From an archaeon (lineage in GTDB: Archaea > Nanobdellota > Nanobdellia > Woesearchaeales > GW2011-AR15): a stretch of DNA of 64,000 bases. Below the pieces are notes generated by a model, which saw only the letters and a program-made list of their open reading frames with translations, did no database searches and was not told the origin of the DNA. The DNA lies in contig JABHXU010000011.1 of NCBI GenBank assembly GCA_018657065.1, positions 22,948 through 86,947 on the forward strand. The letters are read 5' to 3'. The translations under genes were made by a program, and so were the position numbers. Below, piece by piece: positions 16,901 to 30,313 of the stretch (positions are counted from its first letter, which is position 1; the number at the start of each line of letters is the position of its first letter).

Positions 16901-18415
16901 TCCTGCAGGAAGCAATTTAATTGATCCTGAATGATCTACACCTGAAAAACTATCAAGTTCTTCTTTTACTGCTTTTCCTACTTCTACATAATATTTTGCA
17001 TATTCAATTATTTCATAATTTGTTAAAGAAATATTATGCCATTCAACTGCTAAATTTGGTTCATCTCCTATTTCTATATATATAGGCCATTGAGGTTTAT
17101 CTTTATGAATTTTATCAAGTAAACTTAAAATGTACCAAACAGGTGTTTCATCTGTTGATGAATCTCCATAATCATAAGACGGTAGTGCTCCACCATCTTC
17201 ATTTTCACCATAATAACAATCTAATGAATAGGAATCACATGATGAATCTTCTCCAATATATTCTTCATGTTTACAAAATGATTTTGCATTATTACAGATA
17301 CCTGGATGTGTCCAATACTCTGTAACTCTATTTTCTTTAGGAGGTAATACTTCTCTTAAATTAATTATTGGAGTCAATTCCATATCATATAATTTATCAA
17401 AAATTTCTTTGTAAAAATCTAATTCATTATCGGTAAATGCTTCATTATGAACAACTACTTTAACAAATCCACATGCACCTGAAAAATTATATGCACAATT
17501 AAGATTTTTATCAACTCTACCGACAACACCAGTTTCAACAAGTTCATCCCACATAACTTGCATACCATATTTATTAGCCCCATGACAAGTTGCTCCCCAT
17601 TCAGACAGATGAGTTGTTGCTGCAATAACTTTATTTTTTTCAACATCTGCAGAGCTAGGTAATGTTTCCCAGTGATCATTATCTAAAAATACTATTTTAA
17701 ATGCTTGCTCTTTTGCTAAATGTGAAACATGTTCATCTTCATATCTAATAGTTAAAAATGCATTTGGACTAAATGTAACGTGTGGACTAAATTCATACTT
17801 TACTCTTCCTAGAATTGCTGGATCATCTGGACACATTTCTTTTAAGTATAAACTTATCTTATTTCCACCTTCAACAGTTGTGCCTTTAGGAATTTTAAGT
17901 TCCAAATCTAAATCTGATGAAATTAAAGATTGTTCTCTTTGAAGAACTCCATCACTCAAATCTAAAGACAATGTTTTAGTTCTTGGCAATTTGAAAGTTC
18001 TATCAAAAAATTCAATTCTAGTGTCTTTTTTCAAGATAATTGGATAGTAAACATAGGCATAAATCTCATCATCTCTTATCTCAACTTCAACTTCGTCTGG
18101 CTTATCTTCTGCTGTAACAATATATTTTTGTTCTTCAAAATTAGAAAAATTCATACACCCATATATTTCAGACTCTATGTTTTGTTTAAATGGTTTTGAA
18201 TCACATATACCTTCTTCATCTATTGTTCGTAGAACAATTGAATAAATACAATCATCCATTGATTTTTCTAGATAATCAGATGAAAACTCGAGTAAAGGAG
18301 GTTTATTATTGACTATATTATCTATAGGATTTTGACTTATATAAATAAGACTTCCTACTAGTGCTACTAATACCAAACCGAGAATAACATATACAGTAAT
18401 TTGAGATTTTGCCAT
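13925..18415 (-). CDS. Giant (1496 aa) cysteine-rich surface protein: pilin-like N-terminus, ZU5-like module, GH clan-A-like motifs interrupted by thrombospondin type-3 repeats, duplicated Cys-knot C-terminus
   Basis: Uninterrupted 4.5-kb ORF. N-terminus [21 protein letters not shown]; the ZU5-like module ends in THLSEW. GH-A-like motifs are [22 protein letters not shown] and ILITEMAW. Residues ~788-975 hold D.D.DG..D..DNCP...NP.Q.D repeats. The C-terminus has two copies of a ~75-aa Cys-rich module. Confidence 0.85.
   Translation of the reverse strand: [1496 protein letters not shown]
15491..16054 (-). repeat. Thrombospondin type-3-like Ca-binding repeat array (coding, within the 1496-aa protein)
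   Basis: [106 protein letters not shown]. Confidence 0.75.

Positions 18416-30313: not shown

Follow-up and report, generated by a model that had tools for sequence, protein, structure and literature searches.

Domains of the ZU5 and FIIND type cleave themselves in the turn before the last ZU5 strand, and a buried Phe residue supplies the backbone strain for this cleavage; UNC5b, which does not cleave, has Leu at that position (D'Osualdo et al., PMC3210808). ZU5, GPS, and the autoproteolytic domain (APD) of Nup98 have been united in one superfamily, and N-terminal ZU5 autopeptidases have been predicted for large surface proteins, RHS toxins of bacteria among them (Zhang et al., 2012, PMC3482391). 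MAIN (Microbial Autoproteolysis INducing) domains were found to be cut at HF|S in vitro as well as in vivo: an S-to-A mutation abolished the cleavage, an S-to-T mutation retained it, the fragments stayed associated, and sodium dodecyl sulfate (SDS) or heat freed the ectodomain. Virtually all of the proteins in the MAIN survey, which was made on RefSeq Select, have a signal peptide, an ectodomain, the MAIN domain, and an anchor at the C-terminus (Brogan & Rudner, bioRxiv 10.64898/2026.05.12.724683). Here, we analyzed 64,000 nucleotides of archaeal DNA with a low GC content (~29%), from contig JABHXU010000011.1 (positions 22,948 to 86,947; hereafter, the window), in which three genes on the minus strand encode very large pilin-like proteins of 1496, 1405, and 821 residues, referred to below as the giants. 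In each of them, a module that ends in an H-[FL]-[ST] triplet lies between a pilin-type anchor and a large ectodomain. As modeled, this module is a member of the ZU5 superfamily (the ZU5/GAIN_B/Nup98-APD fold), with the triplet at the position expected of the autoproteolytic ZU5, GAIN, and MAIN domains. From the motif, its position, and these precedents, we infer that the module cleaves itself and that the C-terminal fragment is held non-covalently on the pilin-type anchor, a reading to which we assign a probability of about 0.65.

The open reading frames (ORFs) of the giants are located at 13925..18415 (1496 residues), 20480..24697 (1405 residues), and 27848..30313 (821 residues, aligned with its paralogs). 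The N-terminal ~290 residues of the three proteins are collinear, with pairwise identities of 25–33%, and show the same layout: a class-III (prepilin-type) signal, M-x-K-[AS]-Q, with a hydrophobic helix; a domain of ~115 residues with two Cys residues (the N-domain); an LPR[TS] motif at residues 143, 146, and 149 of the 1496-, 1405-, and 821-residue proteins, respectively; and the module of ~135 residues, which closes with HLS, HFT, and HFS in the same order. The signal, taken as a [KR]-[GAS] motif with a hydrophobic helix of ~20 residues, is present in all three giants and is presumably cut by a prepilin peptidase; none of the Pfam pilin models matched them. The original prediction had quoted three segments as a collinear module ending in H-[FL]-[ST]. 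Translation of the minus strand returned these segments exactly as quoted and at the correct coordinates, and the alignment confirmed the collinear arrangement. A hidden Markov model of the shared region, searched against all six-frame ORFs of the window, matched these three ORFs only.

In the 1405-residue protein, the signal and the hydrophobic helix (MRKAQVSLYVIIGILVVIILGSFFII, read from the sequence) are encoded at 24617..24697, the N-domain at 24263..24616, and the ZU5/GAIN-like beta-sandwich module (residues 146–287), as delimited by the model and the Foldseek matches described below, at 23837..24262. Its triplet, H277-F278-T279, with the predicted scissile bond F278|T279, lies at 23861..23869. 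The module of the 1496-residue protein (residues 143–278; 17582..17989), delimited in the same way, belongs to a divergent subfamily, 'CPDDP', and contains H269-L270-S271 at 17603..17611, with the predicted scissile bond L270|S271. The module of the 821-residue protein (residues 149–290; 29444..29869) was assigned by homology to the two modeled paralogs, and its triplet, H280-F281-S282, with the predicted scissile bond F281|S282, was placed at 29468..29476 by sequence coordinates. All of these features lie on the minus strand. After the triplet, the giants continue for 540–1226 residues, which are rich in Cys (4.5–7.3%) and acidic (18–22% Asp+Glu). The GC skew of the plus strand is strongly negative over the giant genes (−0.21 to −0.34, window positions 14000–30000); rather than marking replication, this skew probably stems from the codons of the minus-strand proteins, which are very acidic (GAN-rich).

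An exhaustive profile search from the shared region of the three giants, covering 1.84 billion cluster representatives, returned 3671 representative clusters at E ≤ 1e-3, of which 149 also passed E ≤ 1e-30. Among the matches listed, the family match was confined to approximately the first 320 residues of the protein. A pilin-type signal ([KR]-[GSA..]-x, then a hydrophobic stretch) was seen in 132 of the 134 N-terminally complete relatives, with Gln at position +1 in 109. The order of anchor, module, and C-terminal ectodomain was the same in all three window giants and in the 134 relatives, in which the tail after the module ranged from 0 to 1407 residues (median, 540); the tails longer than 200 residues had a median Cys content of 5.3%.

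The triplet was counted in 143 motif-covering representatives that are mutually less than 50% identical. H-[FL]-[ST] was found in 140 of them (98%), as HFT in 73, HFS in 52, HLS in 10, and HLT in 5, and the only exceptions were EFS, SFS, and DFS; the second residue was Phe or Leu, and the third Ser or Thr, in all 143. By relative entropy, the His ranks fourth among the 269 profile positions, after one Trp and the two Cys residues of the N-domain, which are 99% conserved across the family. It is also the sole invariant column in an alignment of 52 modules, and a Trp residue ~20 residues before it is conserved at 95%. The near-equal use of Ser and Thr, with nothing else tolerated, is what a hydroxyl nucleophile would predict. 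Chance occurrence of the triplet is ruled out by this family-wide conservation, and the expectation that the triplet would persist across relatives, with Ser and Thr interchanged, was borne out.

Two AlphaFold2 models were analyzed. Model 1, of residues 28–307 of the 1405-residue protein, was built from a 62-sequence alignment and reached a predicted local distance difference test score (pLDDT) of 89.9 and a predicted template modeling score (pTM) of 0.83. It shows the N-domain followed by a beta-sandwich. The N-domain (pLDDT >93) consists of two long helices and a four-stranded sheet, contains C58 and C92, and had no match in Pfam or the PDB. Model 2, of the module of the most divergent paralog (the 1496-residue protein), reached a pLDDT of 90.1; modules of its CPDDP subfamily are 18–31% identical to the main-type modules in the alignment. 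In both models, the DSSP assignment places the His at the end of the penultimate strand and [FL]-[ST] in a tight turn of 2–3 residues, which is followed by a last strand of five residues (turn between model strands 243–250 and 254–258 in model 1, and between 123–130 and 133–137 in model 2). The residues of the last strand, after the predicted cut, are conserved and hydrophobic, with pLDDT >90.

The top PDB matches of model 1 in Foldseek were the ZU5 domains of ankyrin (4d8o, 3kbu, 3f59, and 3ud1), with a probability of 1.00 and template modeling (TM) scores of 0.58–0.62 normalized by the ZU5 chain, and the GAIN domain of BAI3 followed at a probability of 0.91. Model 2 also matched ankyrin ZU5 best (3ud2 and 6m3p; probability 1.00, TM 0.56–0.58), followed by axonemal chains of the CASC1/IC97 type and then by the FIIND of rat NLRP1 (probability 0.96). 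In these searches, the GAIN domain of CD97 had a probability of 0.33, and the TM scores of ankyrin ZU5 were 0.58–0.62 by target and 0.56–0.58 by query. Generic sandwiches, such as carbohydrate-binding modules and viral fiber heads, scored much lower. The original prediction had read a ZU5-type beta-sandwich from the sequence pattern, and ankyrin ZU5 is the best PDB match of both of these independent models. Since structural similarity to ZU5 and conservation of the triplet were both found, the interpretation is supported on its computational side.

The axonemal IC97/CASC1-type chains (8glv_AE, 8j07_k3, and 9fqr_Hn) recurred among the structural matches, and show the same Trp and strand-turn-strand arrangement but with H-L-A in place of the triplet. 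Their domain looks like a ZU5-like domain without the nucleophile, and because the CASC1 triplet is H-L-A, the fold does not require Ser or Thr. An IC97/CASC1 axonemal protein was also the best PDB match by sequence (E 0.017–0.027), over the W...H-[FL]-x strand pair.

Among the sequence models, Pfam ZU5 (PF00791) was the only Pfam family that matched more than one of 62 family members (2 of 62, sub-threshold, best E 0.0023). The match covers the N-terminal two-thirds of the module, and one match of 13 bits spans profile positions 14–83 of 97. In one member, the stretch around the motif aligned with Peptidase_S68, a 33-residue model of the PIDD autoprocessing site (E 0.2). The order of ZU5 and then S68 is collinear with PIDD, and these sequence links are weak but coherent. 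TIGR04213 (PGF-pre-PGF) gave sub-threshold matches at E ≤ 10 in 7 of 52 modules (best E 5e-4; best scores, 16.3–16.7 bits), in which the last ~45 residues of the module, including H-F-[ST], aligned with profile positions 105–152 of 153. PDB sequence and profile searches with three alignments returned no significant match, and the FosB matches in the profile search were judged to be spurious.

Several of the observations weigh against self-cleavage in a ZU5-like module. The gathering score of Pfam ZU5, 21 bits, was not reached: the three full-length giants gave no match at E ≤ 1, and the separate modules of the 1405- and 1496-residue proteins gave none at E ≤ 10. The cut-off of TIGR04213, 28 bits, was not reached either, and no curated model (Pfam, NCBIfam) matched the module at threshold in the window proteins. 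The Foldseek E-values are modest (2.5e-4 to 1.5e-3), and the best structural matches, the ankyrin ZU5 domains, do not cleave. Furthermore, an intact motif does not always lead to cleavage, as some GAIN domains show. Finally, modules of the CPDDP subfamily contain one additional Cys (KEMCPDDP, at approximately residue 197), and a further Cys (HLSEWGATC, C277) follows the predicted cut at a distance of five residues; if these residues pair, the fragments in the subfamily of the 1496-residue protein could stay disulfide-linked after the cut.

The ankyrin matches would fit a ZU5-like module that does not cleave but serves, like those of ankyrin and UNC5, as a stalk or adaptor; it would space or orient the ectodomain, and H-[FL]-[ST] would be kept for folding, through a buried aromatic residue and hydrogen-bonding side chains. 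Consistent with such a role, every ZU5 domain uses the middle Phe or Leu as a structural anchor, including that of UNC5b, which has Leu and does not cleave (PMC3210808). However, a structural role does not predict a His conserved at 98% together with a position restricted to Ser and Thr in near-equal shares, among relatives that are less than 50% identical. Such a pattern is the mark of a catalytic base with a hydroxyl nucleophile that can be exchanged, and the H-L-A of CASC1/IC97 indicates that the fold has no need of Ser or Thr at this position. A stalk is thus the unlikely account of the module, although one with a real share of the probability.

In the self-cleavage reading, each giant is an archaeal surface protein in which a small, disulfide-bonded N-domain joins the pilin-type anchor to a ZU5/GAIN-like sandwich, with a large, variable, Cys-rich ectodomain after it. 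Upon processing of the signal, the hydrophobic helix would anchor the protein in the membrane or in a type-IV-pilus-like fiber, which would be assembled by the T2SSE-family ATPase encoded nearby. On folding, the buried Phe or Leu would strain the turn, and the hydroxyl group of Ser or Thr, assisted by the His, would attack the preceding peptide bond in an N-to-O acyl shift; hydrolysis of the resulting ester would then cut the chain between [FL] and [ST]. The C-terminal fragment would start at the sandwich's last beta-strand ([ST]-x-aromatic-small-V/I-V) and would for this reason remain docked non-covalently, as in GAIN, MAIN, and FIIND. A pulling force or a contact might then free the whole ectodomain, perhaps an adhesin or an enzyme. 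The large outer part of the giants is, in this mechanism, probably a detachable cargo.

As a tentative extension, which we hold to be possible but doubtful, the giants of DPANN archaea might act as a mechanical fuse that resembles GAIN with reversed polarity: a ZU5-like socket, anchored in a pilus or the membrane, would hold a giant adhesin or enzyme non-covalently via a single beta-strand plug, and pulling, such as on a host cell or by pilus dynamics, would release the cargo. In such a case, release would leave an exposed, empty socket on the cell and set free the 'Stachel-like' N-terminal strand of the cargo, and either of the two could serve as a signal or a re-docking site. Episymbiotic archaea would then possess an attachment and release system that is widespread, with thousands of clusters, and has so far gone unannotated; it would also form an evolutionary link among the pilin, ZU5, and GAIN worlds.

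The ectodomain of the 1496-residue protein contains thrombospondin type-3 repeats (Pfam TSP_3, E 1.4e-11; COMP and thrombospondin chains, E 1e-15 and weaker) and many Cys-rich repeats. The 1127-residue, Cys-rich ectodomain of the 1405-residue protein has a metallophosphatase-like C-terminal region, in common with a neighboring 1004-residue paralog encoded at 24832..27846 (minus strand). This paralog carries an ordinary Sec-type signal, MKSRTLKSYIFVLIFTIFLVSVNA, without the anchor or the module, and has ~770 residues of ectodomain in common with the 1405-residue protein (BLASTP, 32% identity, E 2e-102); its C-terminal part gave a weak match to Metallophos (calcineurin-like phosphoesterase, E 0.012). 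Since the paralog shares the ectodomain without the anchor, the same cargo is encoded side by side in free-secreted and anchored forms. A scan of ten relatives showed a GH25 muramidase in one and an fn3 domain in another. In the relative P0024 (911 residues), GH25 is located at residues 709–875 (E 4e-39) as a C-terminal cargo, that is, an enzyme that degrades the bacterial cell wall is borne by an archaeal pilin-like anchor.

The secreted paralog, which suggests that a soluble form of the same ectodomain is functional, and the presence of enzymes such as GH25 in some relatives are consistent with self-cleavage as a one-way step of maturation or secretion, in which the anchor serves for export only and the ectodomain is shed constitutively as a soluble protein. 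The predicted cut is followed, however, by the conserved hydrophobic last strand, well modeled as described above, which in GAIN, MAIN, and FIIND gives stable non-covalent association, and we regard constitutive shedding as improbable.

The LPR[TS] motif, which the original prediction had used as the landmark preceding the module, is present in all three window giants but is not a family motif: Arg (73%) is the only one of its residues above 50%, with Leu, Pro, and Thr/Ser each below 50%, and the only other position above 50% near the site is an aromatic residue four positions earlier. Processing by a sortase or archaeosortase at this motif, with the module unrelated to cleavage, was rejected as scarcely credible for this lack of conservation, despite the superficial likeness to LPXTG in all three giants; in addition, model 1 places the motif in a beta-strand where the two domains join, and no sortase-like gene was found among the window ORFs scanned.

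The gene for the 1496-residue giant adjoins that for a type IV pilus or secretion ATPase of the T2SSE family (764 residues; 11625..13919, plus strand; Pfam PF00437, E 3.5e-14), which has an N-terminal extension of ~350 residues. The same region (9833–13919) encodes a small pilin-like protein of 175 residues (MNKRAQAAVETLMIYGV..., read from the sequence; 9833..10360, minus strand), without a Pfam match, and two coiled-coil or low-complexity proteins. Neither a platform protein nor a prepilin peptidase was found among the window ORFs scanned. Between the giants, the minus strand encodes a membrane-anchored winged-helix protein (DUF7343, with a signal or transmembrane segment; 18440–19129) and a metallo-beta-lactamase–LOG/SLOG 'lysine decarboxylase-like' fusion (19162–20457), and both genes keep their position on every contig with the 1405-residue gene. 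The identical 1405-residue protein recurs, with the same neighbors, on metagenome contigs from 60 blocks of the assembly collection; two of the assemblies concerned are metagenome-assembled genomes (MAGs) at NCBI. Archaeal-type housekeeping genes, such as those for RNase J and DNA primase, are also found in the window.

All of the retrievable source names of the relatives are "hypothetical protein", from MAGs labeled "archaeon" or "Nanoarchaeota archaeon", and the named members belong to DPANN archaea. A search of genome contigs with a 4-sequence alignment led to two related loci, in a Candidatus Woesearchaeota MAG and in an unclassified archaeal MAG. Both contain tandem adjacent paralogs (1143–9978 and 411–9561, respectively), each with HFS at approximately residues 277–283, and arrays of paralogs seem to be typical of the family. 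A word-indexed homology search with the N-terminus of the 1405-residue protein gave no match, and with the 62-sequence alignment it gave one protein only. In the literature on combinations of DPANN, pilin, ZU5, and GAIN, no description of this archaeal family was found. The MAG-only archaeal proteins were probably outside the coverage of the MAIN survey, because it used RefSeq Select, and given the reversed polarity, the pilin-type anchor, and these MAG-only sources, the family appears not to have been described previously.

If the module cleaves, the "cut but hold" principle of GAIN, MAIN, and ZU5 would extend to a large archaeal family annotated throughout as hypothetical, and a new architecture would be added, with a pilin-type N-terminal anchor and a detachable C-terminal cargo. 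The module would also open to experiment the question of how DPANN archaea, with their reduced genomes, present giant adhesins and enzymes and let them go. Among the cargoes of the family are TSP3/Ca-binding repeats, the GH25 muramidase, and metallophosphatase-like domains, and such molecules are the likeliest mediators of contact with hosts.

Compared with known systems, the fusion of a large functional module to a pilin-type N-terminus is shared with the modular type IV pilins and other proteins with class-III signals, such as PilB and PilC of Streptococcus sanguinis and the sugar-binding proteins of the Sulfolobus bindosome. The modular pilins and bindosome proteins are not known to contain a ZU5/GAIN-like autoproteolytic joint where the pilin part meets the module. 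The likeness to PGF-pre-PGF (TIGR04213) of archaeal surface proteins is a sub-threshold match over the strand-turn-strand with the triplet. The PGF-pre-PGF domain precedes a C-terminal PGF-CTERM anchor, that is, it has a MAIN-like polarity, and judging from the aligned sequences, the domain before these anchors may be a related cut-and-hold module.

The GAIN/GPS domains of adhesion G-protein-coupled receptors and polycystin-1 are cut at H-L|[ST] in the turn before the last strand, in a sandwich beside a membrane anchor, and are likewise associated with a large adhesive ectodomain and a model of force-dependent separation. In contrast, the archaeal module has neither the helical GAIN_A nor the GPS Cys pattern: the preceding N-domain has two helices and a sheet instead of six helices, and the modules of the 1405- and 821-residue proteins (the main subfamily) contain no Cys. 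The polarity is reversed, and the structural match to GAIN is weaker than that to ZU5, with the probabilities given above for BAI3 and CD97.

The ZU5 domain of bacterial polymorphic (RHS) toxins is, like the archaeal module, an N-terminal domain of the ZU5 superfamily at the base of a long extracellular protein, with a cut predicted there, at the cell surface (PMC3482391). Those proteins are bacterial, with SpvB/TcdB-type export, toxin tips, and a C-x-H active-site motif (PMC3482391), whereas the archaeal module is fused to a class-III signal and pilin-like anchor and has an H-[FL]-[ST] site. The ZU5 domains of PIDD and UNC5CL and the ZU5-UPA (FIIND) of NLRP1 and CARD8 have the same fold and are cut before the last ZU5 strand at [HS]-F|S. 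In PIDD, NLRP1, and CARD8, the polarity is also the same, in that the N-terminal fragment keeps ZU5 and the C-terminal fragment comprises the last strand and the effector part. However, these are cytosolic metazoan signaling proteins with UPA and death-fold domains, whereas the archaeal proteins are extracellular, with a pilin-type anchor, without UPA, and below the Pfam ZU5 threshold.

In terms of function, the closest characterized analog is the MAIN domain, which is microbial and GAIN-like, and not eukaryotic ZU5. By its published description, the MAIN domain, as in YfkN of B. subtilis, is a prokaryotic, extracytoplasmic, GAIN_B/ZU5-like sandwich beside the surface anchor of very large proteins, with H-x-[ST] (for YfkN, HFS) in the turn that leads into the last strand, diverse adhesive or enzymatic ectodomains, and proposed non-covalent retention and release. 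The two differ in their polarity: the MAIN anchor (sortase, SLH, and others) is C-terminal, whereas in the archaeal family the anchor is N-terminal and the ectodomain C-terminal, such that the anchored piece would retain most of the sandwich and the released piece would carry the last strand. After the prediction of 2012 and the bacterial demonstration of 2026, the concept of such a joint is already known, and the interest that remains lies in the architecture and lineage and in how large the unannotated family is. These comparisons bear on the proposed common origin of ZU5, GAIN, and the microbial autoproteolytic domains, in which the archaeal family has the polarity of the metazoan ZU5-UPA proteins and not that of GAIN.

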